Positions 9,385 through 54,100 of a stretch of 56,783 nucleotides of DNA are shown here, piece after piece (the stretch's first letter is position 1; every line of letters starts with the position of its first letter). Origin of the DNA: an uncultured virus (IMG/VR IMGVR_UViG_3300031836_000398) (taxonomy: Duplodnaviria > Heunggongvirae > Uroviricota > Caudoviricetes > Herelleviridae); the IMG/VR virus record IMGVR_UViG_3300031836_000398; one strand, written 5' to 3'. The notes under the pieces were generated by a model, which saw nothing but the letters and a program-made list of their open reading frames with translations, made no database searches and was not told where the DNA came from. The position numbers and the translations under genes are program-made.

Positions 9385-9475
9385 GATGATCCCCTTTCGA
9401 GGGTTGGTGAGTGATTGGGACAAAGAAGCAACCGCTCGGCCCGAGTGGGTCGAGCGGTTGCTGTCTGAGGTGACG

Positions 9476-9808: not shown

Positions 9809-9827
9809 GGGTGCTGCCTTTCAGTCT

Positions 9828-16376: not shown

Positions 16377-17054
16377 TCAGTGAACGGTGAGCCCGTATTC
16401 GCGAGCGGTGGTTTGTAGGGCGTCATTTGCTGTGCCGATGGGCATATCTACAGTGGGCACAATCAGCGCTCCCGAAAAGACTGCCCAACACTCGTGTGGG
16501 CCGAGGCGCGACTCGTAGCGCAGACCTCCAAAGAGGAACTCACCGTCTTCATCCTGAACGGTGTACGCCCACTCGGAAATAGCCCGGGTAAGCAACCGGT
16601 TGGGCCCACGCAGGGTGGCGATGTCCAGGTTGGCGATCCCGAGGGCATCGAGAGTCGGGGCCATCTGTGCAGTGAGGAACGTGTGGGTCGCAGGCTGATC
16701 GACGTCGAGAAATGGTAGTGGCTCGCTGAGAGAGAAACGAACCAGGCGACGGCAATCGCGCCACTCGGCCGGGATAGCACCGACATCCATGAGGTGTTCA
16801 CCGGGCTCGGCACGCATTAGCAACGAAGCAGCGGTGGGCCGGAACCGTGAGATGGTTTCGGCAAAGGCGCCCTCGGCGGTCGTGGCGGCGTACAGCACTT
16901 CACCGCCAGGCACGTCAAAGCGGTTGCCGCCGGTCGGGGCAGCAGCGTCTTCTGCTTGGATGCTTGAGAAACGCAGAGGGTTCGCTGTGCGACCTACTCG
17001 CCAGAGTTCTGATGAGCAGGTCGCGAGAGCCGGCTCGAGAATCGGATCAGGCAC
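16377..17054 (-). CDS. RES-domain toxin (NAD+-targeting family)
   Basis: R (LWRVGR), NRFD, VLYAA, E (AFAE) and S (YESRL) signature; overlaps the antitoxin gene. Confidence 0.85.
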   Translation of the reverse strand: MPDPILEPALATCSSELWRVGRTANPLRFSSIQAEDAAAPTGGNRFDVPGGEVLYAATTAEGAFAETISRFRPTAASLLMRAEPGEHLMDVGAIPAEWRDCRRLVRFSLSEPLPFLDVDQPATHTFLTAQMAPTLDALGIANLDIATLRGPNRLLTRAISEWAYTVQDEDGEFLFGGLRYESRLGPHECWAVFSGALIVPTVDMPIGTANDALQTTAREYGLTVH

Positions 17055-35576: not shown

Positions 35577-37835
35577 ATGGGTCTGAAGCAGTCAATCGTC
35601 ATCGTCAACGAGTACACCGTGAAGTCTCCGACGACGAACAAGGCGAGCCGAGGGGCTACCCCCGGCGACTACGTGACTCGTTACATGGCTCGTGAGCTGG
35701 CGACCGAGACAGTGGCCCCGATCAAGCAGGATCGCCTGGATCATTTCGTGCTGCGCTACATGGCCAGGGCCAGCGCAACCGAGACCGCTCAGAGCCGACC
35801 AGGGCTCAAGCAGAAGATGAAGCGCGACCAAGGGTCGGCAGGAGTCTCGTTCGGATATGGCGAAGTCAGTCTGTCCCAGGCGAAGCTCAACAGCGCGAGC
35901 CGGGACATCCAGAATTGGTTCGACCAAGGCCACACCGTCATGAAGACGGTGCTGAGCTTTGATGAAGAGTACCTGCGTAAGCACGGGCTCATCCCTGCAG
36001 ACTTCGTCTGCAAGAAAAAGGGGGACTACCGGGGCCAGCTGGATCAGATGAAGCTGCGGATGGCTGTGATGCGCGGTATGGAGCGCATGGGCGGCACGTT
36101 GTACGACGACCTGCGTTACGTGGGCGTCATTCAGGTTGATACTGAGCACGTTCACGCTCACCTGGCGATCGTCGATGCAGGCGAGGGCAATCTGACACCC
36201 GATGGCACTCAGCGAGGCAAGATCCTTGACCGAGCTAAGAGCCTGTTGCGTCGTGGTATTGACGGGTATTTGGACGAGAAGCAGAGCGTCAAGCACATGA
36301 GCTCAGCGGTGGGCTACGAGCGCCGCAATGTCACCACGTTTGTGAAGCGGTGGGCTCACCAGCAAATGCTGCGTGAGTCTCTGCCACAGTTCTTGCTGTC
36401 GTGCTTGCCAGAGGATCGACGTCTCTGGCGCTCGAGCACAAACCATGCCTCCATGAAGAAGGCCAACCGGATCGTTCACGAGCTGGTGGAAGACGTGTTG
36501 TCGCGACCAGGCTCACCGTTGCCGGCGGCCATGGCGAAGGTTCATGCCTATGCGAAGCAGCGTCGACAAGCGGAAGGTTTGACCCGTGGCCAGTGGAAGC
36601 ATCTCGTGGACAATGGCCGTGCTCAGATCATCGAGCGCGGTGTCAACGGTGTCTACGGTTTGCTGCGGGCACTGCCCGAGAACGCGCTAGAGGTGCGTAC
36701 TCCGGTGTTGGATGCCATGAGCATGGACTACGAAGAACTGGCCGTGCGAGCGAGCCAGACCAGCCACTTGAACGAGAGCAATGACCTGGCAAGCTTCGGC
36801 TTCCGTCTGCGTAGCTACTCTGCTCGTCGGGATAGTCACCGAGAGAAGCGCAAGTTTTATCACCAGAGCGCGCGGGCGTGGGAACAGTCAGAGAAGGCCG
36901 GTATTGCCTCTGAGGCATCACGGGCTCTCTACGAGTTCTATCTCGAAGAAGAGGCATACCACTCGCGTTGTGCGGCGAAATATCAGAAGTTCCTGACGTT
37001 CGCTGATCGTGACCAGGCGAACTGGAACACGAAGTGGCAGGCGGTCGCAGAGTACGGCGAGCGGATGACGTCGCTGACGATGCTGCGCAAGGATGCCTCG
37101 CTGCGCAAGATGAAAGACGCCAACGAGGCTGAGACGCTCGGCCGTGAGATCTACGGTCAATCGGGTGGTGGTTTGCTGACGATCACCGGCCCCGCGGGTA
37201 CGAAGGTTCTCGACGAACGCCTGACAAAGATGCGAGCCAACTATGTGGAGCAGGTTGCTGATCTGCGAAGCGATCTTGCCGCGTCGGGGTTGAAGCTGAC
37301 GATCAAACGTGACCCCAGTGGCAGCACCGCTGATGAAGGGATCATCTCACCCGGCGCCGAGTACGACTTTGCCGACGTCAAGGGAATGGATCTGCACCAC
37401 ATGCGTTACGACTTCTCCACGGACGTGAAGGTCGGTAAGCGAGCTCGTACCCAGTTTGTCGACTGGGCACGTTCACGGATGGAGCACTTGGCCAAAGCGG
37501 TGCGGTATCTGAAGCTGTCGCGTCAGCACAGCGCCATTGAGAGCCTGCCTGTGGCCGACATCGAGTCGATGGTCGTACTGGCGGACAATCTTGAGGCACA
37601 GAGCGCTCAGGGCAACGCAGAGATCGTGTTGCCGAGCGAGGTAGCTGCGCTGGTCAAAAAGAACCAGACGCTGCGCCGTTCACGCACCGTGACGCTCGAC
37701 GCGAATCTGGCCAAAGAGCTCGAGAGCAAAGTCGACGAAGCCGCTATCGAAGCTGCCGGTATTGATCCATTCATTCTGCCGGAAATGAGCGAAAAAGAGA
37801 CGGAAGTGTCACGCATATCTCACGGTTTGGAATAG
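35577..37835 (+). CDS. mobL: MobL-type conjugative relaxase
   Basis: SIVIVNEY...PGDYVTRYMAR (candidate catalytic Tyr), KTVLSF, and YVGVIQVDTEHVHAHL HUH motif. Confidence 0.8.
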   Translation: MGLKQSIVIVNEYTVKSPTTNKASRGATPGDYVTRYMARELATETVAPIKQDRLDHFVLRYMARASATETAQSRPGLKQKMKRDQGSAGVSFGYGEVSLSQAKLNSASRDIQNWFDQGHTVMKTVLSFDEEYLRKHGLIPADFVCKKKGDYRGQLDQMKLRMAVMRGMERMGGTLYDDLRYVGVIQVDTEHVHAHLAIVDAGEGNLTPDGTQRGKILDRAKSLLRRGIDGYLDEKQSVKHMSSAVGYERRNVTTFVKRWAHQQMLRESLPQFLLSCLPEDRRLWRSSTNHASMKKANRIVHELVEDVLSRPGSPLPAAMAKVHAYAKQRRQAEGLTRGQWKHLVDNGRAQIIERGVNGVYGLLRALPENALEVRTPVLDAMSMDYEELAVRASQTSHLNESNDLASFGFRLRSYSARRDSHREKRKFYHQSARAWEQSEKAGIASEASRALYEFYLEEEAYHSRCAAKYQKFLTFADRDQANWNTKWQAVAEYGERMTSLTMLRKDASLRKMKDANEAETLGREIYGQSGGGLLTITGPAGTKVLDERLTKMRANYVEQVADLRSDLAASGLKLTIKRDPSGSTADEGIISPGAEYDFADVKGMDLHHMRYDFSTDVKVGKRARTQFVDWARSRMEHLAKAVRYLKLSRQHSAIESLPVADIESMVVLADNLEAQSAQGNAEIVLPSEVAALVKKNQTLRRSRTVTLDANLAKELESKVDEAAIEAAGIDPFILPEMSEKETEVSRISHGLE

Positions 37836-39307: not shown

Positions 39308-41074
39308 ATGTTCGACCAGAGTGATATGAATGAGAAGTACCCGATCCTTTCGGCGTACTCCGACCCGATCAAAGCGCCTGAGCGCGAGATCGTTGGTCGC
39401 GACCATGAGGTCAATCAGCTCATGGCGTCAATGTCACGTCCGGAGCTGTGTAACGCGCTCTTGTTGGGCCCCGCAGGTTCCGGAAAGTCGGCGTTGGTGC
39501 AGGCGACAATGCTCAGCGACTCCGGGCGGCTCTACATGGAAGTAGACCTGGCTCGGATGATCATAGGTTTGGCGAGTATCGAAGAACTCGCGGGAACGCT
39601 GAAGGCGTTCTTCGATGACGCCGAGAAGTTCGCCCGAGATGAGAAGCAGCAACTCGTGCTGTTCATGGACGAGTTCCACCAGATCGTGCAACTGTCTGTG
39701 GCTGCCGTGGAGGCTCTCAAGCCGATCCTGGCGGCATCCGGTGTGCGCGGTCTGCGCATCATCGCCGCTACGACGTACGACGAGTTCAAGGCGCACATTG
39801 CCGCGAACCTGCCGTTGGTCGAGCGCCTACAGCGCATCAACCTGACCCCAACGGACAAGAAGACGACGATCTCGATTCTGCGCGGCATGGCCGTGCGGTA
39901 CGGGGTGTCAGAGATGTTCTACGACGATCACCTGTTGGAACTGATCTACGACTACACCGAGCGCTTTGTCCCGGCGTCGTCACAGCCGCGAAAGTCGATC
40001 CTCGTGCTGGACTCGATGGTGGGTTGGCACCGCTTTACGAAGCGCGGCATGGATCGCGCGCTGTTGGCTGACGTGTTGTTGGAGTCGATCAACGTCAACG
40101 TGACGTTCCAGATGGACGCCGTCAAGATCAAAGAGCAACTCGATGCCAAGGTGTTCAGCCAGGATTACGCCACGGCAGCAGTAGCCCGACGGCTGCAGCT
40201 GTGTGTGGCTGACCTGCACGATAAGACGAAGCCACTGAGCTCCTTTCTCTTCACTGGCTCGACCGGTGTCGGAAAGTCTGAGCTCACCAAGCAGCTCTCG
40301 CTGCTGCTGTTCGGAGATGACCAGCGCAGACTGATCCGTTTCGATATGACGGAGTACGCAGCAGAATCATCCTTGGCTGCGTTCAAGTCTGAGTTGGCAG
40401 CCCAGGTGTGGCAGCTCGGTCACGCGGTGATTCTTTTTGACGAGGTCGAGAAGGCCGCGCCGACAGTGATTCGGCTCTTGCTTCAGGTGCTCGATGACGC
40501 CCGTTTGACGGACGACAACAATCGCGAGGTCTCGTTCCTGAACACGTACATCATTCTGACGACGAACGCCGGCTCGGAGATCTACTCAACGATTGCTCAG
40601 TACGAGGTCGACGACACCGGCTCGGGGGAGAAGCTCAAGGAGTACTCCAAGCAGATCCGAAACTCGATCACGAACACGCAGGGTGAGAATCGGTTCCCGC
40701 CAGAACTGCTGGGCCGTATCGACGCCATCGTGCCGTTCCAGCCGCTGTCGCTGGAAACCCAGCGCAAGATCGTGTTCTCCAAGCTGCACCAGATGACGAA
40801 GGAGGTGCTGACCAAGCACAACGTTCGCGTCCAGGTCGACGGCAAGGTGTTGCAGTATTTGATCGACGACAAGGGCGACACCGAGGCGGATGCCGGTGGT
40901 GCTCGTGCAGCGATCAGCAAGATGACCGAAGAAGTGGTCACTGAGGTTGCCGCATTCATCAACGCCCACCCGTTCGAGCGCACGATTCGTATTGACGTGG
41001 ATGGGGATCTGGTGAGTGAGCACAAACAGATGTTGAAGTCAGATGCGCATATCGTTGTGTCTGCATCACAATAA
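39308..41074 (+). CDS. ClpA/ClpB-like tandem AAA+ ATPase lacking N- and M-domains
   Basis: NBD1 GPAGSGKS / LFMDEFH / IAATT; NBD2 GSTGVGKS / RFDMTEY / LFDEVEKA / FPPELLGRID / GAR. Confidence 0.9.
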   Translation: MFDQSDMNEKYPILSAYSDPIKAPEREIVGRDHEVNQLMASMSRPELCNALLLGPAGSGKSALVQATMLSDSGRLYMEVDLARMIIGLASIEELAGTLKAFFDDAEKFARDEKQQLVLFMDEFHQIVQLSVAAVEALKPILAASGVRGLRIIAATTYDEFKAHIAANLPLVERLQRINLTPTDKKTTISILRGMAVRYGVSEMFYDDHLLELIYDYTERFVPASSQPRKSILVLDSMVGWHRFTKRGMDRALLADVLLESINVNVTFQMDAVKIKEQLDAKVFSQDYATAAVARRLQLCVADLHDKTKPLSSFLFTGSTGVGKSELTKQLSLLLFGDDQRRLIRFDMTEYAAESSLAAFKSELAAQVWQLGHAVILFDEVEKAAPTVIRLLLQVLDDARLTDDNNREVSFLNTYIILTTNAGSEIYSTIAQYEVDDTGSGEKLKEYSKQIRNSITNTQGENRFPPELLGRIDAIVPFQPLSLETQRKIVFSKLHQMTKEVLTKHNVRVQVDGKVLQYLIDDKGDTEADAGGARAAISKMTEEVVTEVAAFINAHPFERTIRIDVDGDLVSEHKQMLKSDAHIVVSASQ

Positions 41075-41183: not shown

Positions 41184-43481
41184 ATGGTTATGAAGTTAGG
41201 GAAGGGAGCCGCGAATTTGCTCGACAATAAAGCAAAGGATGGGTCTGAGCAAGGCGCTGATGGCGCCGCGCTGACGGCAACGCCCGTGGTCAAGAAGCGC
41301 AAGGCGGATGAACTGTTGTCCAGCGTGGTCGGGGAATCGACAGTTGGTTCAGCCATTGGGCTGATGCGCAAGAACGCTGCATTTATCCTGCCCGACGAAA
41401 AGTCCTGGGTAGTTCTTGGTCTCCAGGTCAGCGACATCGGCGGCCTGAGCATGAAGCAGAAGAATGACGAAGCCAAAGGCTCGTTGATTCAGCTCATCAC
41501 GGCAGACCAGATCACCACGGTGACCACTGCCGACATGCTTTCGGCTGAGGTGCTGGGCATTATTCCCAACGAGGAATCGCTGTCTCGGATGGACGAGTTC
41601 GGCCTTCTGCGTAACGCACCATATCTTTGGATCGTTGTGCGACAAAAGAGCGATGGTTCGCTGGACGCAGGCCCCGTTTCGGACGCCGGCCTTCGTGCGA
41701 GTTTCGAGGATGTCGTAGCTGTCTCATCGGGGGAGCTGAGCCTTGCGAGTCTTCTTCCTGATGTCTGGACTGCCGCAGGTGGTTCCGATGAAGATCTCAC
41801 CACGACGGCTGTTAGTGAAGTTTCCGCTGACGAGCCGGAGCCTGAAGCAGTGAGTTCGTCACGTTCTGACGAACCCCTGGCGGCTCCCGCTGACGGTTTC
41901 GTCGACGACGACAGCCCCTTTGGGGATGAGCCCGTCGATTACGACGCCTTGGATTCCGCTGATGACGAGCTGCCAATCGAAGATGCTCTGGCTGACGAAG
42001 CCGAAGATGCAGACGACGCTGAAGACGAAGACGAAGCTGATGCGAATGATGACGACGACGCTGACTTCGGTGATCCCGAACCTGCCGCGGAGTCTGAAAC
42101 CGTTGAAGAGGCCGTGGCGAGCGCTCCTGCGACGCCGGTCGATGACCGTATCGTCAATGAGGCCGAGGTTCAGGATTCGATTGCCCGTCGCTTCTTGACG
42201 AGTGATCTTGATCTCGAAGTAGACCTGGGACAGTTCGAGTCGAACTTCATTGTTCGCACGAACCCGATCGCCTTCGATTTCGGTGTCACTCTGACTGAGA
42301 CGGGAACTGATTCGGACTGGCTTAGCCAGCAGGTGAAGCAGTTGTCGTTGCAGGCGAACGTGCAGCTGGAGCAACTGCACGATAACCACAAGGCATCATT
42401 GCGTGAGTACTACGTGTCATTGATGTCGGCACACATCGAGCAGGTTATTACCGATGTGTCTCTCGATAACGAAGGCTCCTACTACTACCGCTTGTCTAGG
42501 GCGGCGAAGGCCGACTTCACGCAGCGTCAACGACAGAGCCCCGAAGAGGTCTCCGCACTGCGCCGAGAGCTCAACGAGCGCTATGACGGCGAAGCCGATG
42601 CTCGTGCTGCCCAGGCTGCAGAGGCAGCCCGGTTGCGCTACAAGGAGCAGAATCGTGCGCGACACGAACGTGACCTCGCGGAGATCGCTCTTGAGAACGA
42701 ACGTGCTTCTGAGTCGATGTTTGCCGGCGCACGTCAGGTCATCCTGGAAACCCGTCGCAAGGATGCCCTGAGTCGGATCGACCTGGGCGCCACGAAGATC
42801 TTCGATGTTCTGGTGGAGCGTCAGGTTGAGAACCGCGCAGCCGAAGAGACGATGCTCAAGGAGTGGAGCGATCGGATGGCTCTGCTCATCGACGAGAACC
42901 GCAAGAGTGACCTTGCGCGAAGTGAAGCTTTGGCTGAACAGCTTTCGCGCATCAATCAAGTCGAGGAACTCAAGGCGGAACACTCGGCGCGGGTAGCCGA
43001 GTTGCGTCAAGAGCAGGTTGCTCGGGTTTCCGATATGTCGGCAGACCTCGAGCGTGCTCGTGAAGAGGCGTTTGCGGAGCTGACTACTCAAAGCACCGCG
43101 TGGAACAACTCGCTTGCCGAAGAACGTCAGAAGACGGACGCCGCCCAGGGTCAAATCAAGACTCTGCTGGCTGAGTTCGATCAACTGGGCCCGACGTTGG
43201 AGAGCCACTACAAGAACCAGATCGAATCGGCGCGTGTAGAGGCTGATTCGTACTCGCTGGCTCTTGAGCGTTCAGGGAAGGTGCAGTCGCGTGCGAACAA
43301 GACGATGGTCGGTTTGATCGTTGTTCTGGCACTGGCATCCCTGGCTGTGGGCTTCATCGCTGGCTTCATCGTTGTTGGGCAGTTCGGTGTCACCCTCGGC
43401 GATGTGTTCGCGCCAGGCGTCTCCGAGCAGACCAGCGAGAGCACCCCGCTTGGTGATGTTGCGGAGCTGCCGGGGCAGTAA
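41184..43481 (+). CDS. Coiled-coil protein with acidic linker and C-terminal TM
   Basis: Asp/Glu-rich tract, long heptad region, hydrophobic helix near the C-terminus. Confidence 0.7.
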   Translation: MVMKLGKGAANLLDNKAKDGSEQGADGAALTATPVVKKRKADELLSSVVGESTVGSAIGLMRKNAAFILPDEKSWVVLGLQVSDIGGLSMKQKNDEAKGSLIQLITADQITTVTTADMLSAEVLGIIPNEESLSRMDEFGLLRNAPYLWIVVRQKSDGSLDAGPVSDAGLRASFEDVVAVSSGELSLASLLPDVWTAAGGSDEDLTTTAVSEVSADEPEPEAVSSSRSDEPLAAPADGFVDDDSPFGDEPVDYDALDSADDELPIEDALADEAEDADDAEDEDEADANDDDDADFGDPEPAAESETVEEAVASAPATPVDDRIVNEAEVQDSIARRFLTSDLDLEVDLGQFESNFIVRTNPIAFDFGVTLTETGTDSDWLSQQVKQLSLQANVQLEQLHDNHKASLREYYVSLMSAHIEQVITDVSLDNEGSYYYRLSRAAKADFTQRQRQSPEEVSALRRELNERYDGEADARAAQAAEAARLRYKEQNRARHERDLAEIALENERASESMFAGARQVILETRRKDALSRIDLGATKIFDVLVERQVENRAAEETMLKEWSDRMALLIDENRKSDLARSEALAEQLSRINQVEELKAEHSARVAELRQEQVARVSDMSADLERAREEAFAELTTQSTAWNNSLAEERQKTDAAQGQIKTLLAEFDQLGPTLESHYKNQIESARVEADSYSLALERSGKVQSRANKTMVGLIVVLALASLAVGFIAGFIVVGQFGVTLGDVFAPGVSEQTSESTPLGDVAELPGQ

Positions 43482-43503
43482 TAGCTCGGAACAAAACAAC
43501 TGG

Positions 43504-43550
43504 CGAAGGGTGTCAGGTTTCTACCAAGAAGCCTGACACCCTTCGTTTTT
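43504..43550 (+). terminator. Intrinsic terminator
   Basis: CGAAGGGTGTCAGG...CCTGACACCCTTCG followed by TTTTT. Confidence 0.8.
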
Positions 43551-43574
43551 GCATGTAAGCTGAATGAAATAATT

Positions 43575-43590
43575 CACTGATAAACGAGCA
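43575..43590. promoter_or_regulatory. 16-bp palindromic box (virD4-N)
   Basis: CACTGATAAACGAGCA. Confidence 0.7.
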
Positions 43591-43610
43591 AATAACGCAG
43601 GAGAGCACCG

Positions 43611-46600
43611 ATGACGAATAGCAACGGTCAGGGCCCCAAGCCCAAGACCAGCAACTGGGACAAGATTTCCTCGCGCGATCACAGCGAGACTCTTGCCAAC
43701 CGCGATGTCTATGAGGATCAACAGCTCGACCGATCTCGCATCCAGGGCTTGCAGTCAAAGGTCAGCCGCATCTGGCTAGCCGCTATCGCGGGCTCCCTGG
43801 TGTCTGGGCTGGCATGGTTTGCCTTCTCCCTTGTGGCGTTGGTGTTTGTCTGGGCTGGCCCGGCGCTGAACGGTCTGGGATCGACCGGCGGCGACGACGC
43901 TGTGGCGATACCGGACTATTACGAATCGGTGATCTTGACCCCGGGTGAAGCTCAGATGTTGGGGGTGGCGAATCCCGAAGGTGGCGTGATGAGCTGCTAC
44001 CTCGCGACAGACGCTTCCGGACAGACGGTGGGAACGACCTGCTACGAAGAGGTCGAGGACGTTCCTGTTCCCCAGTGGTACATCGACCTGCAAGCAGCCG
44101 CGGGAGTGGATGTAACGCAGGAGAGCGCTCCGGTCGAAGAGGTCGCGTTTAGCGGTCTGCTCACGGAGCAGATGCTCACCTTCTCGCTCTGGAAGTTGCT
44201 ATTCGCGCTCGTGGCTGGAATGCTGACATACGGGATGCTCTACCCGTTCCTCATGCGCAACCTCGAAGCTCAGAACCTGATGAACGACACCACGGACATC
44301 AACCAGTACAACAACGACCAGCACATCGCTTTGCCTGAAGAGATTCAGCGTAAGTTCGACTGGTTCCCCGATGTTGGCGCGCATAGCTCGGTGCAGCTGA
44401 GTTCGATGATCAGTCACATGATGATCACAAACAAGGGACTCAAGACGATTCCCGTCTCGCAGCGCGCGGCGAAAGACGTGCTCGACGAAGACGGTGAGAT
44501 CGAGTACCTCAAGGGTGAGATTCTCCACGACGCGGCCGGTGAGCCGATCGTGAAGCCAATGGCCATGATTGACGAGAAGTTCGGTCACGCTCTCTTCGAG
44601 GCGTCCGGGCTTCCTGAGCCGTTGCGTAAGTTCTACGACGTCAACAAGATCCCGTACAATCCGGGCAACGAGAGCATGGACAAGCTCAAGGGCTACGACA
44701 CTGTCGGAGACCTCATCAACGAGGATTGGACGTTCCCTGACTACGAGGTTCAGCGACCAGGCGGCGCGTACATCGTTGACACCGCACCGGTGAACACGAT
44801 GGTGCTGGCGATGACCCGAGCCGGTAAGGGCCAGACGTACATTGAGCCTGTCATCGACATGTGGATGCGCGAGAAGCGCCCCAACAACATGGTCATCAAC
44901 GACCCAAAGGGCGAGCTGCTCGTCAAGAACTACGTTCGAGCAAGCCTGCGCGGTTTTCAGGTTGTTCAGTTCAACCTGATCAACGCGATGAAGACAGACA
45001 TTTACAACCCGTTGGGAATGGCTGCTGACGCTGCTCGTGAGGGTGACGCCACCAAGTGCGCCATCTATGTCGAGAACATCGCTGACGTGTTCTTCCCGAC
45101 CGATGGTGGAGAAGATCCTGTCTGGCCGAACGCAGCAAACAACGCGTTCAAGCGTGCTGCTTACGGTCTGATTGATTTCTACCTAGAAGAAGAACGCGAG
45201 CTTCGTTCTCGTGCTGCTCGGATCAACATGGATCCTCAGCAGCTCGAGGTTGAGCTGGACACAATGTGGGGCAAGGTCACGCTGTACAACTGCTACCAGC
45301 TGTTCGTGCAGCTCACGTCCAAGAAGATGAAGAACCCGGAGAAAGAGCTTGAGGCGCGCTTCAAGGCCGGAGTCTTCGAGAACATGGAGAACGGTCAAGA
45401 GGTTTACAACGCCGAGTACGAAGTTGCGGCACGCAAGGCGATCCTTTGGGAAGACCAGGCTGACCGCGACATGCTCACGCTCTACTTCAACGCCACCGAG
45501 GTGTTGCCGCAGAACACGATGCGTACGTTGATTGGCAACGCCAACAACGCGCTGAAGGCAATGGCCGGCGCCGAAAAGATGCTCGCTTCCGTATACGGAA
45601 TTGCGATCACAGCGATGAGCTTCTTCACCGACCCGACGATCTCGACGTTGACCTCTGGCGCTCCGAGCCAGAACACCGACCTTGGTGGTTTGAGCTTCCC
45701 GCGACGCATGGGTGTGCGCTTTGGTATGAACTACCTCAAGCGCGACAACCTCATTGGTGCTCAGGTCAAGTGGGATGCGTTCGACGACGAGCTGTTCACG
45801 CAGCCTCTCGGTGACGAGTTCGGCCACGAAGACATTGTGTCTCGTGAAGGCTGGGCTCGGTACTACTTCGAGGGCAAGTTCCCGACCGACAACGGCTACC
45901 TACGCCTTCGCTTGGTGAACCCTCAGACGCAGATGCTGATTCGCACGATGTACTTCCATTTCAAGAAGGATTACCAGACTTCGCTCAATGGACGTCGCTA
46001 CATCACTGACCCAGTAACGGGCCGGAAGATCGTCAAGAACGGCATCCTCCGTGAGCTGATTCCAGAGTTCGGTGTGGGCGACGAAGCCAACCAGATCGTG
46101 CGGATTGAGCGGGGTCACACTATGTACCCCCAGACACGACTCGATTTGTCCTTGCACACGCCAGAGATGGTGATGGACAAGGCGCAGGCGATCGTTTCAA
46201 CGATGGTGCGTTATTCAGAGTCACCCAAGATGGTGTTCCTGGTGACGCCGCCTCACCTGATGAAGTACGCGAAGCTGATCCTGATTTTGGTGAAGCAGCT
46301 TGTCGACTTGAACTTCGACAAGTCGTACATGACCAAGAGCAACCAGAAGCCGCTCTACAAGACGCGCTTCATGCTCGATGAGCTCGGTAACTTGCAGTCC
46401 GAGGGTCACGGTATCTCCGGATTCGAGACGATGCTCTCTATCGGTCTCGGGCAAGAGCAGCAGTTCACGTTGATCTTGCAGACGCTGCAGCAGCTGCGAG
46501 ACGTCTATGGGGAATCGGTGGACAAGATCGTGCAGGGCAACGCGCAGCCGCTCGACGCCAAGATCGCGACGCCTACTGGTTGGAAGCCGATGGGCGAGAT

Positions 46601-46775
46601 AGTCACCGGCGATGAAGTGCTCACGCCGGCTGGTGGAACCACAGAGGTCACGGGTGTCTTTCCTCGAGGAAAGCGTCCGGTGTACCGAGTCACGCGACGT
46701 GATGGCTCGACCACGGAGGTCTGCAACGAGCACCTCTGGGAAGTAGTAGTGAAGCCGAAGGGCAGCCGTCGATGA
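43611..46775 (+). CDS. virD4: VirD4/TraG coupling protein N-extein (aa 1-977) fused to split-intein N-fragment
   Basis: Two TM segments; Walker A-like AMTRAGKGQT; NDPKGEL; Walker B FMLDELGNL; ILQTLQQLRDVYG; ends with AQPLDAKIATPTGW...CNEHLWEV. Confidence 0.9.
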   Translation: MTNSNGQGPKPKTSNWDKISSRDHSETLANRDVYEDQQLDRSRIQGLQSKVSRIWLAAIAGSLVSGLAWFAFSLVALVFVWAGPALNGLGSTGGDDAVAIPDYYESVILTPGEAQMLGVANPEGGVMSCYLATDASGQTVGTTCYEEVEDVPVPQWYIDLQAAAGVDVTQESAPVEEVAFSGLLTEQMLTFSLWKLLFALVAGMLTYGMLYPFLMRNLEAQNLMNDTTDINQYNNDQHIALPEEIQRKFDWFPDVGAHSSVQLSSMISHMMITNKGLKTIPVSQRAAKDVLDEDGEIEYLKGEILHDAAGEPIVKPMAMIDEKFGHALFEASGLPEPLRKFYDVNKIPYNPGNESMDKLKGYDTVGDLINEDWTFPDYEVQRPGGAYIVDTAPVNTMVLAMTRAGKGQTYIEPVIDMWMREKRPNNMVINDPKGELLVKNYVRASLRGFQVVQFNLINAMKTDIYNPLGMAADAAREGDATKCAIYVENIADVFFPTDGGEDPVWPNAANNAFKRAAYGLIDFYLEEERELRSRAARINMDPQQLEVELDTMWGKVTLYNCYQLFVQLTSKKMKNPEKELEARFKAGVFENMENGQEVYNAEYEVAARKAILWEDQADRDMLTLYFNATEVLPQNTMRTLIGNANNALKAMAGAEKMLASVYGIAITAMSFFTDPTISTLTSGAPSQNTDLGGLSFPRRMGVRFGMNYLKRDNLIGAQVKWDAFDDELFTQPLGDEFGHEDIVSREGWARYYFEGKFPTDNGYLRLRLVNPQTQMLIRTMYFHFKKDYQTSLNGRRYITDPVTGRKIVKNGILRELIPEFGVGDEANQIVRIERGHTMYPQTRLDLSLHTPEMVMDKAQAIVSTMVRYSESPKMVFLVTPPHLMKYAKLILILVKQLVDLNFDKSYMTKSNQKPLYKTRFMLDELGNLQSEGHGISGFETMLSIGLGQEQQFTLILQTLQQLRDVYGESVDKIVQGNAQPLDAKIATPTGWKPMGEIVTGDEVLTPAGGTTEVTGVFPRGKRPVYRVTRRDGSTTEVCNEHLWEVVVKPKGSRR
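46542..46772 (+). other. Split intein N-fragment (77 aa, Ala1, blocks A and B)
   Basis: AQPLDAKIATPTGWKPMGEIVTGDEVL...VYRV...DG...CNEHLW is a Hint-domain N-terminus. Confidence 0.9.
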
Positions 46776-47182
46776 GCCCCACCGTTCCCTCCGATCAGCG
46801 CTCGATGCCGAGCGTGGATCTTATCGTCGCCCACTGGAAGTCTGTCGGGGTTGACTGGGTGCAGCATCACGGCTGGGGTGAGCCATTCTGCTTTGGTTGC
46901 GGTTGGTTGCCCCCGGTCACGGATCGCCGGGCGATGAGTTGGCGCTGGGCCGGGCCCTGGCTCGATCGAGCGCACCTACAAGACCATTGGGTCGAAGGGG
47001 ATGATTCGGTTGAAAACTTGGTGATGCTGTGCCATTTATGCCACGCACAGATGCCGCAGGACTTCGAGGATCGCGCGGAGGCGTTGCTCTGGGTTCAACA
47101 GGTCGAGCGGTGCTCGGGGTGGTGGCAGTTGTACACCGACTTGATCTGCGAGGCGAGAGGTATGAGGGGCTCCGAGCAGTAG
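46772..47182 (+). CDS. HNH endonuclease-like protein
   Basis: CFGC...LDRAHL...NLVMLCHLCH; ATGA overlap with the virD4-N stop. Confidence 0.8.
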   Translation: MSPTVPSDQRSMPSVDLIVAHWKSVGVDWVQHHGWGEPFCFGCGWLPPVTDRRAMSWRWAGPWLDRAHLQDHWVEGDDSVENLVMLCHLCHAQMPQDFEDRAEALLWVQQVERCSGWWQLYTDLICEARGMRGSEQ

Positions 47183-47287
47183 GCACACTCTGCTCAAGCT
47201 GAAAAATGCGTACTTACTCTTGGAAATTGAGTCCTTACAGCAAGCAGCTGCGCAAGTGACCAAACCAGTAGTTAGGGGGTGAACATT

Positions 47288-47419
47288 ATGGATATTGAGA
47301 TGGCTGATTCTTCAGGACAGCTCTACGACAATTCGAGGCGGGGTTTGTGTAGAGTGCATGGAATTCCGCTGGACGACGGTTTCTGTGACGCCTGTCATAT
47401 CGAGAACAACGACGATTGA
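47288..47419 (+). CDS. 43-aa zinc-finger microprotein (absent from the ORF track)
   Basis: GGGGGTG RBS; MDIEMADSSGQLYDNSRRGLCRVHGIPLDDGFCDACHIENNDD (C-x2-H-x8-C-x2-C); ends just before a terminator. Confidence 0.5.
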   Translation: MDIEMADSSGQLYDNSRRGLCRVHGIPLDDGFCDACHIENNDD

Positions 47420-47422
47420 AGT

Positions 47423-47460
47423 AAAAGAAGCCCCTGCGCATGATGCGCAGGGGCTTCTTT
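47423..47460. terminator. Bidirectional intrinsic terminator inside the split virD4 locus
   Basis: AAAGAAGCCCCTGCGCAT-G-ATGCGCAGGGGCTTCTTT. Confidence 0.85.
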
Positions 47461-47465
47461 GTCGC

Positions 47466-49445
47466 TTACACAGGCTTCACCCAGCGCGTCTTCCCAGAGT
47501 CCCAGATTCGGTAGAGCTTGTTGGCGGCGGCCGCTTCGCGTTCGGTCCAACCTTCTTGGTAGACCAGAGCATCGTCGGTGCGAAATCGCTTCAGCTGGAA
47601 GGCTTCCTTGGGCTGGCGATTGCCACGCAGGGCACCACCTGCATACCAGTACGACGGACGGATCGTTCCTGCTGAGGTGAAGCCAGAAGCAGCGTAGAGC
47701 TGCCCGTCCGACCATTCATCGGCAGACAATGTCACCCAACTTTCAAGGGCTTCACCTTGACTTATGAGGGTGCGTTCGGCGTAGGCCAGCAGCCGCGAAA
47801 AGCCTCCCGGGACCAGACCGCGCGTTGCGTAGCGTTGGATCTCCCACTGACCGGCGGACCGGCGAGCTCGAGCGTTGTGGCGAGGGCTGCGTAGACCGAG
47901 GACGGCACGAGGGAGGCCCTGTTGATCTACCAGAGCGAACGACTGCGAAAGCGTCACTTCGCCCTGAACATGGTTATGGCGGAAGAACTCGGCTGAGTCT
48001 GGACCGGAGAGCTCCACCAATGTGAGTGAGCGTGCGCCAACACGTTGAACCAACGTCGGATCAGAGTCAACTTTGAGACCCGCGGCGATCAGAGCTGCGT
48101 GCAGGTTCTCGGGTCGCTTGAGCTTGTGTGCAAAGGTTCGCACGAGAACGGCGCGCTTTATTGGGTCAGCCCAGTCGTCTTCCCACGCGGTGATAAGCGA
48201 GAGACCGGCCTCATGAACGGCTCTTAGCTTGGCGACGTGGCTCTTCTGGTCACGACCACCAGCTTCAGAGTGCCAGAAAACGCCGTTGAACTCGAAGCCG
48301 ATTGTCCCAGCGATGACGTCGACTTCGACGCGCTTACCCTGTGCGTCGGTGATCTTGGCTCGGTGTTGAGCCCGCGGTTCGAGAGCCAGCAGCGCCGCGA
48401 GCATTTCTTGCTCGCCGTAGGACGAACCGACGGGGCAGCACGTAGGGCACCCATTGCCAGCAACTCGGGCATACACTGCCGCGGGCCAAGTGTGGTTGTC
48501 TTTGCAGCGCCATTCAGTAACGACCATAGAGCCATGGCTGAGGGTGGTTGCCAACGAAGGGTCAGCCAGCTCGGCCGAGAGGTCGGGGTGGGTGGTAGCG
48601 AGATCGTTGACGCCGACAAGGATCTGAACGCCGGCGTGTACGGGGCAGCTCTGACCGCGAAGTTTGTGGCGAACGCTCATCGCGTACGTGTGAGCGCTGG
48701 AGCACTTGTCGCAACGCCATTCAACGACACGACCGGAGCCGAGGCTCAGCGTCGCTGCGTGATCGCGATCCACTGCCTCATCCAGCACAGGAGAGTTGAT
48801 GTCGCCGAGCGTTTGGTGCCGCCGCGCTGGCCGGTCTGTGCGACCGATGCAGTGAGGGCAACCAGTGATCTTGGAGCTACCAAATCCTGATCGGTTGCGC
48901 ACGGGAGCCGTCCAGGTGTGAGTGGGCTCAACCGAGCATCGCCAGTGAAGTTTCTTCCCTGAACCCGCACCTAGACCCTTGGCCTCGTCGGGGTCGATTA
49001 GCTCGAGTACAAGATTCGGGTGCGTGGTCGCAAGATCGCTGATACCGCTAACCGACATTCGACCGGAGCAGTATGGGCAACCAGATCCGAGTCGCACCCT
49101 GGATACAACGGATGCCTCCCAACGATGCGACTGCGTTGTGGTGCAGACCCAAAGGAACTTCTTGTGTGACCCGCCGTGAGTTATCAGAGCGTCAGCGTGG
49201 TCAACAAGCTGGGTGGCGAGATCTGGCTCGGTCGTTGCGAGGTCGTTGATGCCCGGAATGATTATCTTGTTTGTGCAGACGGAACACCCCGAACCCCGCT
49301 TTCGCGTATTTGGGCTAGATGTCCAGATGTGGCGCGAATCCTTGACGCAGCGCCATTGAACGCGGGTGTTTGATCCAGCAGACAATGTTGCGTTGGTCGG
49401 GTCGACCAGCTGGGCCGCAAGTTTGGGTGTCGTCATCTTTTGCAT
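47466..49445 (-). CDS. Free-standing homing-endonuclease-like protein (zinc-ribbon repeats, Vsr-like nuclease, GNAT/Mom-like C-terminal domain)
   Basis: Five W-x-C...H...C-x-x-[CH] repeats (DUF4379-like); EVD...FEFNGVFWHS...WEDDW; WEIQRY...GGFSRLL...GQLYAASGF...RIWDSG. Confidence 0.8.
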   Translation of the reverse strand: MQKMTTPKLAAQLVDPTNATLSAGSNTRVQWRCVKDSRHIWTSSPNTRKRGSGCSVCTNKIIIPGINDLATTEPDLATQLVDHADALITHGGSHKKFLWVCTTTQSHRWEASVVSRVRLGSGCPYCSGRMSVSGISDLATTHPNLVLELIDPDEAKGLGAGSGKKLHWRCSVEPTHTWTAPVRNRSGFGSSKITGCPHCIGRTDRPARRHQTLGDINSPVLDEAVDRDHAATLSLGSGRVVEWRCDKCSSAHTYAMSVRHKLRGQSCPVHAGVQILVGVNDLATTHPDLSAELADPSLATTLSHGSMVVTEWRCKDNHTWPAAVYARVAGNGCPTCCPVGSSYGEQEMLAALLALEPRAQHRAKITDAQGKRVEVDVIAGTIGFEFNGVFWHSEAGGRDQKSHVAKLRAVHEAGLSLITAWEDDWADPIKRAVLVRTFAHKLKRPENLHAALIAAGLKVDSDPTLVQRVGARSLTLVELSGPDSAEFFRHNHVQGEVTLSQSFALVDQQGLPRAVLGLRSPRHNARARRSAGQWEIQRYATRGLVPGGFSRLLAYAERTLISQGEALESWVTLSADEWSDGQLYAASGFTSAGTIRPSYWYAGGALRGNRQPKEAFQLKRFRTDDALVYQEGWTEREAAAANKLYRIWDSGKTRWVKPV

Positions 49446-49499
49446 AACACTAGTTTACACTGATATTACATCCCGTATCAAGCTCATTTGGTGGTTATT

Positions 49500-49515
49500 T
49501 GCTGATAAAGGAGGA
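49500..49515. promoter_or_regulatory. 16-bp box (virD4-C / divergent endonuclease gene)
   Basis: TGCTGATAAAGGAGGA. Confidence 0.55.
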
Positions 49516-49569
49516 TAAACGTATAGACTGGTGGTTGGATAAACAATCGAGAGAGAAGAGATATTGCAT

Positions 49570-49857
49570 ATGTCTGATTTGCTCATGGTGCCAGCCGGGG
49601 AAAGACGCGTTGTCACAACGGACGAACTCAGGGCGATGCTTGCTCGCGGGGAACAGGTGTTCCTGCCTGAGGCGACAGTCACGGACGAGAGCATCTTGTC
49701 AGAATACGCCGCTGCCGATCGTGCGCGTTTGGACGTAGACGCAGCTGACAATGACATCGTCAGCATCGAGTACGTGCGTGACGACGAGGTTCAGTGCATC
49801 GAGGTTGCTGACGACCGTCACCTGTACATCACGGATGACTTCATTCCGACACACAAC
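49570..49857 (+). other. Split intein C-fragment (about 96 aa, blocks F and G, ends His-Asn; Thr+1 at 49858)
   Basis: Cys at position F4 (VQCIEV); PTHN/T terminus. Confidence 0.9.
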
Positions 49858-51003
49858 ACGAGCAACATTGTGTTCCTCAAGAGCACTGATGACTCGATGA
49901 TTGACACGCTGCAGAAGATGTCCGGTGTTCGGCACCGCGCGTACACCGACTCTAAGACGGTGACCAAGGACATGGAGCGTTTGTTCCTCCAGACCGAGGG
50001 CAAGGTGTCGTACACGATGGCTGTGAAGGAAGAACCCGTCATCAGCTATAACGACATGGCCTTCATCTCAGAGCGCAACAGCATGGTCTTCAGTGCCGGT
50101 AACTCACCGGTGTGGAACCGCAACGAGACGATCCTGCCGATGAGCTGGCGCTTGTTCAAGGACACGATCGTTCATGCGGGTCACGAGTACTCGCTGCAGA
50201 CGATCCCCACGCTGTCATCAGCGTTGGACTTCGATGTGCGGCTCAATCAGCCTGACTTCACCAAGATGCTCGCCAAGCGCATGGCGCAGGCAGAGCGTGC
50301 CGCTGAGGCCAAGGAGCTGTACCAGACGGCGTACAACTACTCGGATTACGACGTCTCGCGACTGGATCCCGACCTGTACTCAGACGAGGTCATGGGTTTG
50401 ATCGAGTCGATGGCGTGGGAGGCAATGGGTATTGACCCTGACGACATGAAGGACGGAGATCACGAGGCTCTTGAGGCTCAGTATGTGATGAACGACGAGG
50501 ACTACGAAGTAAACACCGAGCAGCTCGAGGAAACAGCCCGACGACAGGAGACGAGGGATCGGATGGGACACAAGATCTATGCGGGAGCTACGGTCAGCCG
50601 CGAAATGCTGGTCAACCCCGACGGCAGTGCATTGAAGCACACGCTCGATGCTGAGATTGTGGCAGCGTACAAGGTAGCCAGGCCGCACCTGGAGCGCGAC
50701 ATGGAGTACTTCCGCCTGGGCGCCGATGGTTCGCTGCTCAGCGGTGACGGCACCGAGGCGTACATCTCGAAGCTTGATGAGTCCGACGCCCTGGCCGACG
50801 CTCAGGTAGCTGCCACGGACGCCAACACGCGAGTGTTTGCGGAAGACAACGTGACTGAGAATGCTCATGGTTTGTCGACGTTCGAGGTACACGGGGCGTT
50901 CTACCGGTTCCTGGCGTCGCTGGACACCTGGCAGGGTCTGGCGCAGGGCGAATTTGACCGCGAGATGGTCAAACAGATGCACGTAAAGGACGCCACGATT
51001 TGA
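49570..51003 (+). CDS. virD4: Split-intein C-fragment fused to VirD4 C-extein
   Basis: IVSIEYV...VQCIEV...HLYITDDFIPTHN then TSNIVFLKSTDDSMIDTLQKMSG, which continues the VirD4 C-terminal motif. Confidence 0.88.
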   Translation: MSDLLMVPAGERRVVTTDELRAMLARGEQVFLPEATVTDESILSEYAAADRARLDVDAADNDIVSIEYVRDDEVQCIEVADDRHLYITDDFIPTHNTSNIVFLKSTDDSMIDTLQKMSGVRHRAYTDSKTVTKDMERLFLQTEGKVSYTMAVKEEPVISYNDMAFISERNSMVFSAGNSPVWNRNETILPMSWRLFKDTIVHAGHEYSLQTIPTLSSALDFDVRLNQPDFTKMLAKRMAQAERAAEAKELYQTAYNYSDYDVSRLDPDLYSDEVMGLIESMAWEAMGIDPDDMKDGDHEALEAQYVMNDEDYEVNTEQLEETARRQETRDRMGHKIYAGATVSREMLVNPDGSALKHTLDAEIVAAYKVARPHLERDMEYFRLGADGSLLSGDGTEAYISKLDESDALADAQVAATDANTRVFAEDNVTENAHGLSTFEVHGAFYRFLASLDTWQGLAQGEFDREMVKQMHVKDATI

Positions 51004-51026
51004 GTATGACCGGATAACTACGAATG

Positions 51027-51042
51027 TGCTGGTTTATCAGCA
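51027..51042. promoter_or_regulatory. 16-bp palindromic box (upstream of the RNAP gene)
   Basis: TGCTGGTTTATCAGCA. Confidence 0.7.
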
Positions 51043-51043
51043 C

Positions 51044-51084
51044 AAAAAGAGCCACTTCAACATGCCCGTTGGAGTGGCTCTTTT
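51044..51084 (+). terminator. Intrinsic terminator after virD4-C
   Basis: AAAAGAGCCACTTCAAC...GTTGGAGTGGCTCTTTT. Confidence 0.8.
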
Positions 51085-51161
51085 GCGTTCTAGGTGCGAT
51101 ACTTGATATGTATTCACAAAGCCGAAGCGATTCTTAATCGCTCATATATCAAGGGAAAAGT

Positions 51162-54100
51162 ATGAAAAGTAGCTCAACTGGTTTGCGAAGTTATCTATAC
51201 GAGTACATGTTCTTTCGGACTATCGAGCGAACGCAGCAGAACCTCAGTGAAACGATCCTTATCTCGGAGGCTCGTCGCCTTCGTGATCTGGTGGGCGAGA
51301 AGCTCACCAACCAGGGGTTGTCGATGACCGATAGCGGTCTGAAGGTCACACCGGTACTGCGAGCGATCGAAGAGACCATGCGAGCTGAGGTTCCGGGTTA
51401 CCGGGATCTGTTCTCACAGGCCAAAGACGACGGTGTTCCGTTCTCGGTTGATTCGTTGGGTTACGCCCAACTCAGCCGCGAGTTCATGCGCACGGCAGGT
51501 CTGTCCACGGAACCCTCGGGTGCTGCTGGGCCACGCCTGCCGATTAGCCCCTACGATCCTCGCTGGGCTGTGCGAAGCACGGTCAAGCAGGCTGGTTCCA
51601 ACTTGCTCAACGTTCCCGATCACTTGATCGAAGAAGTTGTGGCTGGAGAGGTCGGTGATCTGGAAAGTTCAGATAGCGAAGCTCTCTATCTCTACGGTTC
51701 CGACCAGGACGACAAGAACGTTGAATTCGGTCGGGCGATGAGCGCCGACGACATGAGCGGCATGGCTGAGCTCATGGGGTTGATGAGCACCCGCGAATAC
51801 AACGATGTTCGACAGTGGATGATCGACGGTGGCCTCGACGGCAACGGTCAGATCGACCACCGCCGTTACATGGGCCCCGACGCCCTCGCGCGTTCGGTTG
51901 CCATCCTCCGCGAACTCGGTGAACAGGGCACGCCCTACACCGTTACTCGCGACCTCAACCCTGGCCAGATCCGGGCCAACATTGAGGGTACAAAGATCGG
52001 CGTTCGCCTGAGCGATACTCGCGACAATGACGACTTTGTCGGGCGGGTCTACGACAACGGGGTAGTCACTCGGTACACCACGAACCGCAAGGTCGCCGGA
52101 ACCGACCGCGTCATGGGCTATACGCCCACCACGGCAGAGAGCGTTGACCTTCTGCGCATGGCACAGGGTCTTCCTGTGCAGCGTTCAGACGGCAAGGGCA
52201 TCATCGGAGCGGTAAACACTCGCTCCGAGCTGGTGTGGGACAAGGCCGTAGGCGACAACATCTACACCGAGATCCAAGACAGCTACCACAGCGCCGGTTC
52301 GGCGATGTTCGTAGTTGGCAATCCGCCAACCGAAGATTTCAACGAGGGTCAGACGTCGCAGGTATTCGTGCGTCGCGACGGCACTCAGCGCAGCGTCAGC
52401 TCGAAGTTCTTTGTTGACCAAGACTCGGCAGCGGCGTACCTCACGTACGGCGTAGAGACTGCTCGCGAGAACTTCATGGATGCCTTGCGTGTCGAGGCGC
52501 TGATTGCGGCTGCTCAAGAGCACGCCGTGGAGGCAGCCGAGGGGGAGTGGTTCCCTGAGTTCGACGGAGACCCCGAAGTTGCGGCTATTCAGCGCAGCTA
52601 CTGGGATGTGTTGCGTGGTGCGCAAGACAACCTTCTTCGTCCCGGCGCAACCGAGGATGCTTACCGCGACAAGGTAGACATCATCGGTGAACTCAGCGTT
52701 GACAACGAGCTGGGTGAAAGCGTCCACGAGTACATCGTTGGCGACATTGCCTACGTCGGTAGCCCCGAAGATCAGATCCGTGCTCACTCCGCTGATGCAC
52801 TGGATTACGTCATCGGTCAGTACGAGCAGCACGAGGTTCCCGACGCCGAGGGGCACTGGCAGTCACAGCGTTTCGACCCGGTACGCCTGGCGAAGTTCAT
52901 GGACAGCGAATACGGCACCTGGCGCAATAACGATGACATCGTGGCTGCGCTTCGGGCCAGTGGTATTCCTGCTGAGGAACTCATGGGTGACAGCTTCTAC
53001 ACGAACACCATCAAGGATCGCCTCATCAAGTTCGACGCGGCTTCGGCTCAGTCGATCGGCGAGATTGAAGACCCGTTCGTGCAGGGTATGGCTGAAACCG
53101 TGCGGGATGCGATTGAACGCAACGGAGCTGCCGTCAATGACGTTGCCGTTGATGCCAACGGCATCGTGTCGTGGAGTGCCGAACGCCAAAGTGGTTTCAA
53201 GGGTAAGACCGAGACGGTCACTGGCCAGATCGGTCAGATCTTCACCCGCGGCGAGTACGGCGAGATCGTGACGAAGTTCGCCGGCGGCGACAACTACCTG
53301 TTCGTTCCGGGCTATGAAGCCGGTATCGCTGTCCAGAAGGTTGGCGAGAACAAGACGGTCGAAGAACGCAGCAAGTTGCGCGGCTACGATCAGATTCTGC
53401 GTGATCAGATCCAGTACCAGGTGTCGTCAGAGATCCTCAGCCAGCGCACCGATCTTGGTGAGCCGACGAGCCTCAACAGCGTGTACCGCCGTCTCTACGA
53501 CGTACGTCACGATGTGGACTTCATCGAGCGCAGCGCAGAAGAAGGTCTCACTCCTGAGTGGCGTGACGCGATTCTCAGCACTGAGGGGCGCCGTGTGCGT
53601 TACCCCAACGCGGTGCGTGATGGTTCGACCATCAACGCCGAGTACCAGGCTGATAAGGGTCGCGGATTGTCGGCAAGCGATCCCGCTAACGACAACACGT
53701 TGGATCCGTGGATTCTCACGGGTCAGCGCAACATGGCGATCATGGGCGAAGAGAGCGATGGCTACTTCGACCCAATGGTGACGTCAGGTTCGATCAACCA
53801 GGGCGTTACGCGCTACTTGGTTGAGGGTGCAGTTGTTTCCGCTGACGGCACGATCGTTCCTGGCGACAAGGACGACCGCACACCGTTGATGAAGCACCCT
53901 GACACCGCTTCGATGCGCTACAACCCCTTCGATCGTCAGCAGATGACCGCAAGCAACCTCATGCGGGCTGCAGCGGTAACTGAGCCGGTTGCAACCGCGA
54001 TGATGACCTTCGGTGGTTGGACGGCAGACGACCCAATGGTGGTCAGCCGTGACTTCGCTCAGAAGCACCAGATTCGTGGCGCCGAGGGCACCATGCGCGA

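Follow-up and report, generated by a model that had tools for sequence, protein, structure and literature searches.

According to the accessible text of Dassa et al. (PMC2677866), natural split inteins break between motifs N4 and C2, with one N-terminal exception. The available portions of two other reports place natural splits at sites S0, S1 and S2 only (PMC13014065, 2026) and at the endonuclease site or close to the N-terminus only (PMC12707363), and many artificial split sites are described as workable in the parts at hand of PMC11078102, PMC8044194 and bioRxiv 2023.01.30.526203. Among class 3 inteins, AceL NrdHF was reported by Hoffmann et al. (PMC7891396) as the first natural split example and was shown to splice; according to its accessible text, none of 1701 class 3 inteins in nr is split, and an excerpt of PMC11766414 gives AceL NrdHF as an example of a class 3 split intein. 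As for hosts, the consulted part of PMC4760082 names VirB4 and VirB11, not VirD4, and that of an actinophage survey (10.1101/2025.01.02.630785) mentions one split intein. Here, we analyzed a 56,783-nucleotide stretch recorded as an uncultured virus (IMG/VR IMGVR_UViG_3300031836_000398; hereafter the window), in which virD4, the gene of a conjugative coupling protein, is divided into two open reading frames (ORFs). From its sequence, a naturally split class 3 mini-intein probably trans-splices the two VirD4 halves into one protein of 1358 amino acids (aa).

Both virD4 ORFs lie on the plus strand. The N-half ORF (43611-46775, 1054 aa) ends in ...KIVQGN followed by AQPL...CNEHLWEV... and a stop codon, and the C-half ORF (49564-51003) reads ...VQCIEV...FIPTHN and then TSNIVFLKSTD. 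The gene is thus composed of two exteins and two intein parts, IntN and IntC:

43611-46541, plus strand: N-extein of VirD4 (type IV coupling protein), 977 aa, with hydrophobic segments, Walker A and Walker B
46542-46775, plus strand: IntN, 77 aa and stop codon, with Ala1, block A, and block B with His B10 and Trp B12 (46737-46739)
49570-49857, plus strand: IntC, 96 aa, with motif N4 (49612-49668), Cys F4 (49795-49797) and the block G residues Thr-His-Asn
49858-51003, plus strand: C-extein of VirD4, 381 aa, with Thr+1 as its first residue, completing the ATPase domain

These ORFs and their translations confirmed the coordinates and motifs of the original prediction, which had read the locus as a VirD4 coupling protein split at an intein. 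The start codon of the C-half is most likely ATG 49570 rather than TTG 49564, because IntC is 96 aa in the two closest relatives. The IntN coding span (46542-46772) stops 11 residues past Trp B12, ahead of motif N4, and IntN is 49-58% identical to residues 2-68 of alleles with a contiguous intein (cis alleles). IntC matched TIGR01443 above the cut-off and has a short, acidic linker without endonuclease. Each extein half is fused in frame to an intein part and the two parts jointly cover all motifs, which is the two-ORF anatomy of a natural split intein.

The exteins sum to 977 + 381 = 1358 aa, and the intact homologues scanned are 1333-1346 aa long. The N-extein matched Pfam PF02534 above the cut-off (E 1.4e-16), in addition to PF12696 and PF10412, and matched NF045973 under the cut-off (E 6e-35). 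It is 55-62% identical to intact plasmid VirD4s, and the C-extein 45-56% identical to their C-terminal part. The features of a VirD4/TraG coupling protein are present, namely a membrane anchor, Walker A and B, the T4SS-DNA_transf domain and a relaxase on the same element, and the homologues are annotated likewise. The break divides the ATPase domain: the Pfam TraG-D_C profile was matched over positions 3-59 (of 126) in the N-half versus 3-120 in intact alleles, which supports the proposed need for both halves in a whole coupling protein. A comparison with virD4 alleles lacking the intein or carrying it contiguously had also been called for. Searching GTDB with the C-extein yielded 18 loci. In 13 of them the reading frame continues across the junction uninterrupted by an intein, in agreement with the claim that joining the exteins gives a seamless VirD4 motif; two are intein-free at the junction but interrupted just past it, three carry a contiguous intein at the exact same site, and none is split.

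By every sequence feature examined, this is a class 3 intein. The WCT triplet is complete in the window (Trp B12, N3:12; Cys F4, C2:4; Thr G5, C1:5), position 1 is Ala and thus offers no nucleophile, and block G has His-Asn followed by Thr+1. We searched for relatives with the first 140 residues of the C-half (358 matches among 930 candidates) and with the IntN region (148 matches among 483 candidates). The best 120 matches of each search pooled to 230 distinct proteins, 13 of them unclassified, and the family counts below refer to these listed matches, the window's own clusters being included among the split ones. They comprise at least 84 stand-alone IntC-VirD4C clusters, at least 67 VirD4N-IntN clusters ending at a stop codon and 66 cis proteins. 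This shared anatomy rules out chance and upholds the claim of a natural split.

Cys F4 and the final Asn are each kept in 84/84 split C-halves, Thr-His-Asn (and with it Thr G5) in 80/84, and Thr+1 in 84/84; the search pattern demanded Cys, Ser or Thr at +1, and the 120 listed matches of the C-half search hold no other stand-alone C-half. Among split N-halves, Ala1 occurs in 66/67 and Trp B12 in 65/67, so the predicted class 3 signature is complete in the window and near-invariant in the family. The aligned C-halves are merely 41-70% identical to that of the window, yet their catalytic residues hardly vary, and the majority fraction is 0.78 in blocks F-G, 0.77 in the ATPase extein and 0.43 in the linker. 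Intein-free VirD4 permits Val at +1 in three lineages, and the fixed Thr+1 of the split C-halves therefore suggests selection on splicing. When 1.84 billion representatives were searched with IntC, the stand-alone IntC type was found solely on VirD4 C-halves among the best 150 of 162 matches. Eight pairs of N- and C-half clusters, matched by eye, agree in the size of their longest contig (just 6650 nt for one pair), which suggests that both halves lie on one contig. Moreover, a sediment run from another study gave one contig (depth 5.6) that is 95% identical over IntN and then diverges, with an in-frame stop five codons later; the sequence past IntN therefore varies between strains. This run gave no coverage of the gap genes, from which their absence does not follow.

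The position of the break is shared across the family. Motif N4, a strand-helix-Gly-strand motif labelled after Pietrokovski's scheme, is on IntC in 78/84 cases and on IntN in 0/67, which puts the break right after block B, between N3 and N4, and not at the canonical S0 site between N4 and C2 where endonucleases are inserted. The name N4 is also used in the accessible text of PMC2677866. The original prediction did not remark on N4 at the head of IntC, the feature by which the split site is atypical. Nearly half of the IntN parts (32/67) end 5-6 residues past Trp B12. Across the family, IntN is 71-129 aa long (mostly 71-80) and IntC 82-128 aa. The order in cis alleles is block B, a variable insertion, N4 and the LAGLIDADG domain, with N4 directly past block B in 63/66 of them. 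The AlphaFold model of one, L004 (pLDDT 90.9, pTM 0.88), matches intein structures and shows strand 65-73, a hairpin insertion 74-91, strand 92-100, helix 101-109 and strand 114-116, with N4 thus before the endonuclease. Because of this strand order, strands 65-73 and 92-100 of the model presumably pair; in split alleles, IntN ends at the first of the two and IntC begins at the second.

Residues 9-96 of IntC align with the stretch immediately past block B of two cis mini-inteins, with 51% identity in P0160 (VirD4) and 45% in P0278, whose host reads in sequence like a PhoH-like protein. Therefore, the endonuclease domain was deleted at its usual site and the chain was broken elsewhere, in a loop that is insertion-tolerant throughout this intein clade. 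Further prediction of the IntN-IntC complex gave a score of 0.59 versus 0.00 for the best control, with runs agreeing in at least 90% of contacts and a partner pLDDT of at least 68. The pass mark was reached by 116/157 solved and 2/215 mismatched pairs, but at scores of 0.60 or below by only 18/157 and both mismatches. The prediction thus lends weak backing to the pairing of the window's IntN and IntC, and may reflect likeness to solved HINT folds.

To follow the history of the alleles, trees were built after dereplication at 90% within each class, partial N-exteins of less than 850 aa being excluded from the N-extein tree. On the IntN tree, 39 cis endonuclease-bearing inteins and one outgroup row form one starred branch, and the split label needs four changes. 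The extein trees mix intein-free, cis and split alleles; 24 changes of the split label are required with the C-extein (at least 12 forced by starred branches) and 15 with the N-extein (at least 10 forced). Split alleles therefore group by intein and scatter by extein, hinting that a cassette moves between virD4 alleles. Alternatively, an old split allele may have been replaced repeatedly by intein-free and cis alleles, and unrooted counts are compatible with both histories. A single origin of split and mini inteins was not rejected by the approximately unbiased (AU) test (p-AU 0.399), which does not in itself establish such an origin. P0160 is a 166-aa contiguous mini-intein in VirD4 with the same linker, nested among split alleles in both trees, and may be a natural re-fusion. 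In both extein trees, the window's nearest neighbour is a cis allele that bears the name Arthrobacter sp. MWB30. Six cis alleles (L014 at 8957-10000, P0206, P0214, P0219, P0222 and P0229) carry Cys1 with the full WCT triplet, or Pro or Gly as first residue; those with Cys1 and WCT are possible class 1/class 3 intermediates.

The 2.8-kb gap between the halves contains two genes, an HNH-like gene on the plus strand and a DUF4379 gene on the minus strand, together with candidate expression signals, one copy of which also precedes the N-half:

43577-43584, plus strand: CTGATAAA motif, 34 nt upstream of the virD4 N-half start
46772-47182, plus strand: HNH-like zinc-finger ORF, 136 aa, its start overlapping the IntN stop (ATGA); Pfam HNH, E 0.0042, under the cut-off
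47424-47460, no strand: perfect inverted repeat of 18 bp, ending in runs of A and T and situated where the two gap genes converge
47466-49445, minus strand: DUF4379 gene, 659 aa, with five treble-clef zinc fingers (PF14311 five times, E 1.2e-46) and a nuclease-like C-terminal part (EFNGVFWH)
49502-49509, plus strand: CTGATAAA motif, 68 nt upstream of the C-half start

Homologues of the HNH-like ORF (41-52% identical) lie downstream of intact virD4 in 7/28 IMG/VR loci, and those of the DUF4379 gene (34-42% identical) lie just downstream of intact virD4 in L002, L008, L017 and L132-L150. The DUF4379 protein matched the PHROG families phrog_559 'HNH endonuclease' (E 2.6e-48) and phrog_3339 'homing endonuclease' (E 1e-42) and is putatively a homing endonuclease of the free-standing kind; for its C-terminal part, the ESM Atlas gave no nameable family save a Mom-like fold in one row. 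There is no LAGLIDADG remnant within the gap. Among intein-free loci, Val at +1 occurs in 21/22 with a DUF4379 neighbour versus 0/14 without. As evidence this association was discarded, as it collapses to two independent pairs and is not significant (p = 1); a DUF4379 nuclease aimed at the insertion site would fit the pattern and is kept as a lead only.

The inverted repeat at 47424-47460 would likely act as a two-way terminator, although a terminator scan requiring a loop of 3-8 nt did not list it. CTGATAAA occurs six times in the window versus 0.37 expected, and none of 100 shuffles reached six, the motif having been picked after viewing the sequence. The other copies lie outside long ORFs at 37848 (inside the palindrome CTGAT-AA-ATCAG), 41084, 51033 and 11869, and the motif is found upstream of virD4 or the preceding gene in 5/21 relatives examined, two of them near-identical. 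The copy before the N-half is a candidate promoter or regulator site, and the second copy suggests that the C-half has an expression signal of its own. No sigma-70-like promoter was found for the C-half, the one site detected (2.4 expected) being on the minus strand.

Based on these data, we propose a mechanism that starts from two ORFs bearing complementary intein parts in which all splicing motifs are jointly present. The halves would be expressed separately, because of the terminator-like hairpin in the gap and the motif upstream of the C-half. IntN (blocks A and B) and IntC (N4 and blocks F and G) may then fold into one HINT domain, to which the complex model lends weak support, with the chain break replacing the surface hairpin past block B that is the variable insertion site of cis alleles. 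Following class 3 chemistry (PMC7891396, in its accessible part), Cys F4 would attack the Asn-Ala1 bond, the N-extein would be transferred to Thr+1, the last Asn would cyclise and the 1358-aa VirD4 would result. As to origin, a cis intein at this site may have lost its LAGLIDADG domain and been fractured by a free-standing endonuclease gene. Selection would since have retained the cassette, which probably reached further virD4 alleles through homing or recombination. The split intein would then be a tolerated selfish element rather than a demonstrated switch.

A broader proposal, which we hold only tentatively and think doubtful as a whole, is that the locus represents a third natural split mode (mid-domain, after block B), fixed once, with the split intein and the DUF4379 endonuclease forming a widespread mobile cassette that homes as one unit into the virD4 genes of large conjugative elements in several bacterial groups. 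The nuclease would cut the insertion site, alleles would escape through the intein or a Thr-to-Val change at +1, and transfer would then need trans-splicing from separately transcribed genes.

Trans-splicing was weighed against other explanations of the same anatomy. The halves might associate through their intein parts, with or without cleavage, into a non-covalent two-chain VirD4 for which ligation is dispensable, much as Aeh1 NrdA, fractured by an endonuclease without an intein, works as two chains (cited in the accessible text of PMC2677866). However, Cys F4, His-Asn and Thr+1 are kept in at least 84 clusters though VirD4 takes Val at +1, and a 170-aa domain remaining in the ATPase fold would be costly, which makes a two-chain protein unlikely. 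Splicing might in addition be regulated, by redox state, metal or separate transcription of the halves, as a switch that gates conjugation; this is compatible with trans-splicing, and we give it a small but real chance. The halves appear to be transcribed separately, the cis intein DnaBi1 of M. smegmatis, also of class 3, is termed conditionally regulated in the available part of PMC10559147, and 64/67 IntN parts have a second Cys at block B position 7. Yet this Cys is just as common in cis alleles (61/66), so the redox or metal switch envisaged in the original prediction finds no support; moreover, the interleaving of allele types on the extein trees indicates that the element does not need the split, and the same upstream motif before both halves points to co-expression.

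Two further explanations are both very improbable. If an insertion had broken a cis intein and left the element transfer-incompetent, the mobile-looking gap genes, which are found elsewhere near virD4, would be accounted for, but both halves are open and conserved across divergent clusters (at least 67 and 84, respectively) that break at a common point. Rejoining of the gene at the RNA or DNA level (intron or excision) is brought to mind by the group II introns in virD4 relatives (4/9 loci scanned), and an assembly artefact by the fact that no single read-run contig spans the whole gap. However, no Rfam intron was found in the window at the gathering score or in 43000-52000 at E up to 1, and the 20 largest repeat families listed include no direct repeat that would connect the end of IntN with the start of IntC. 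Four read runs revealed no joints, two of them covering all 30 bins mostly at 99% identity or more, and the split recurs in many assemblies with contigs of up to 896 kb. In these runs and repeat families, no sign was seen of the artefact or the DNA-level excision that had been named as fatal to the original prediction.

Trans-splicing remains the probable explanation, and several points weigh against it or against the history proposed for it. No natural precedent was found for the split site, so that its competence is putative. The family is known from predicted proteins, mostly of metagenome assemblies, and no complete DNA of a second split locus was obtained among the loci listed from GTDB (0/18), PLSDB (0/3), JGI (0/28) and IMG/VR (0/108, that is 80 + 28), nor among 401 + 401 sampled genomes. 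Charge complementarity is one-sided: IntN and IntC carry +3 and -15 in the window, and the family means, uncorrected for kinship, are -0.4 and -12.5. The intein tree has only 70 columns. Among split alleles, the identities of IntN and of the extein are correlated (Spearman 0.36), so that much of the inheritance is vertical.

The family offers some 150 divergent half-sequences that natural selection has fitted to a mid-domain break, with the C-half holding all nucleophiles. They are raw material for new, possibly orthogonal ligation tools and can be used to test how two halves of nearly equal size assemble into a HINT domain; P0160 is an ideal cis control. As a single site accommodates intein-free, cis-endonuclease, cis-mini and split alleles, models of split-intein origin, spread and re-fusion become directly testable. 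Fractured genes are extended from phage DNA-metabolism enzymes to a conjugation motor, and annotation pipelines would label such elements transfer-dead pseudogenes. If the broader homing proposal were true, conjugative transfer would hinge on protein trans-splicing.

The element also encodes a MobL relaxase (35577-37835, E 7e-75), a topoisomerase, a lysozyme/CHAP protein, a Clp-like AAA protein (39308-41074), a tyrosine integrase (18129-19049) and a VirB4-like neighbour with a weak match only (23066-25240, E 0.0045), and the genes around virD4 are in the order of a Streptomyces plasmid. In many relatives, the upstream Clp-like AAA gene carries or adjoins related intein N-terminal matches (L002 2076-2264, L007 1800-1994, L014 669-869, two in L019 5545-7959, and L132-L150); that of the window has none. 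In the gut relatives L016, L022, L130 and L131, group II introns interrupt virD4, and L016 has up to three or more of them. Judging from these sequences, virD4 is a hot spot for self-splicing elements (group II introns, cis and split inteins). Downstream of virD4, a plus-strand gene (51162-56783) runs off the end of the window and encodes at least 1873 aa, with weak matches to RNA polymerase beta and beta-prime catalytic regions and DFDGD at residue 1416. These weak matches point to a fused single-chain RNA polymerase-like gene, conserved directly after virD4 in most relatives, to which CTGATAAA could be tied. The virD4 and RNA polymerase-like module is also present in L132-L150, which are 67-126 kb IMG/VR contigs filed as viral and may be conjugative elements; the DUF4379 and HNH genes directly after their virD4 vary in presence and completeness. 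The window further carries an actin-like gene (730-2037), a HicB-like gene (11914-12390) and a RES-domain gene (16377-17054), the latter two probably parts of bacterial toxin-antitoxin systems.

Our literature search, covering mostly open-access main texts, returned no report of a split intein in VirD4 or conjugative coupling proteins or at this natural site. The natural split inteins known to the original prediction were class 1; a natural split class 3 intein, AceL NrdHF, had already been published and is the only one known to have been characterised. As far as the accessible text of PMC7891396 goes, AceL NrdHF resembles the virD4 intein in its Ala1, an internal Cys nucleophile on the C-half and an endonuclease gene between the halves. 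In contrast, AceL NrdHF has a typical endonuclease-site split (98/48 aa) and a deviant MCT triplet and comes from one phage-like metagenomic locus with ribonucleotide reductase as host, whereas the virD4 intein is split past block B (77/96 aa), has the canonical WCT triplet, resides in a conjugative coupling ATPase and is represented by dozens of clusters. The fractured genes of Dassa et al. 2009 (PMC2677866, available in part) are alike in that the host gene forms two ORFs with an intein half each and endonuclease genes between them. A free-standing endonuclease gene also lies between the halves in the window (the HNH match being weak), and a re-fused or endonuclease-free form fits their model. 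The Dassa inteins have Cys1, a break between N4 and C2 except in one terminase case, all ORFs on one strand and phage DNA-metabolism hosts; the virD4 case differs in its N3-N4 break, in the antisense DUF4379 gene and in its VirD4 host. AceL TerL, GOS TerL, VidaL and PolB16 (PMC13014065, in its accessible part) are also naturally split away from the endonuclease site, but near the N-terminus (S1, S2; IntN 15-37 aa) rather than mid-domain.

Among contiguous inteins, the LAGLIDADG inteins of class 3 that occupy this VirD4 site (L004, L007 and L014, and the 66 cis proteins of the family counts), of which our literature search found no published description, are close in sequence and share the WCT triplet. 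They differ in being contiguous, at 309-403 aa with the endonuclease (one 166-aa mini-intein), and in forming a separate starred branch of the intein tree. Profile and fold matches were obtained to two class 3 inteins of solved structure, DnaB1 of M. chimaera (6RIX) and DnaBi1 of M. smegmatis (6BS8); both are cis inteins of replicative helicases, and DnaBi1 has been split artificially only, in the endonuclease loop, in the accessible text of PMC10559147. What is new in the virD4 intein is the split position, the size of the family and the VirD4 conjugation host, a class 3 split as such being already published.

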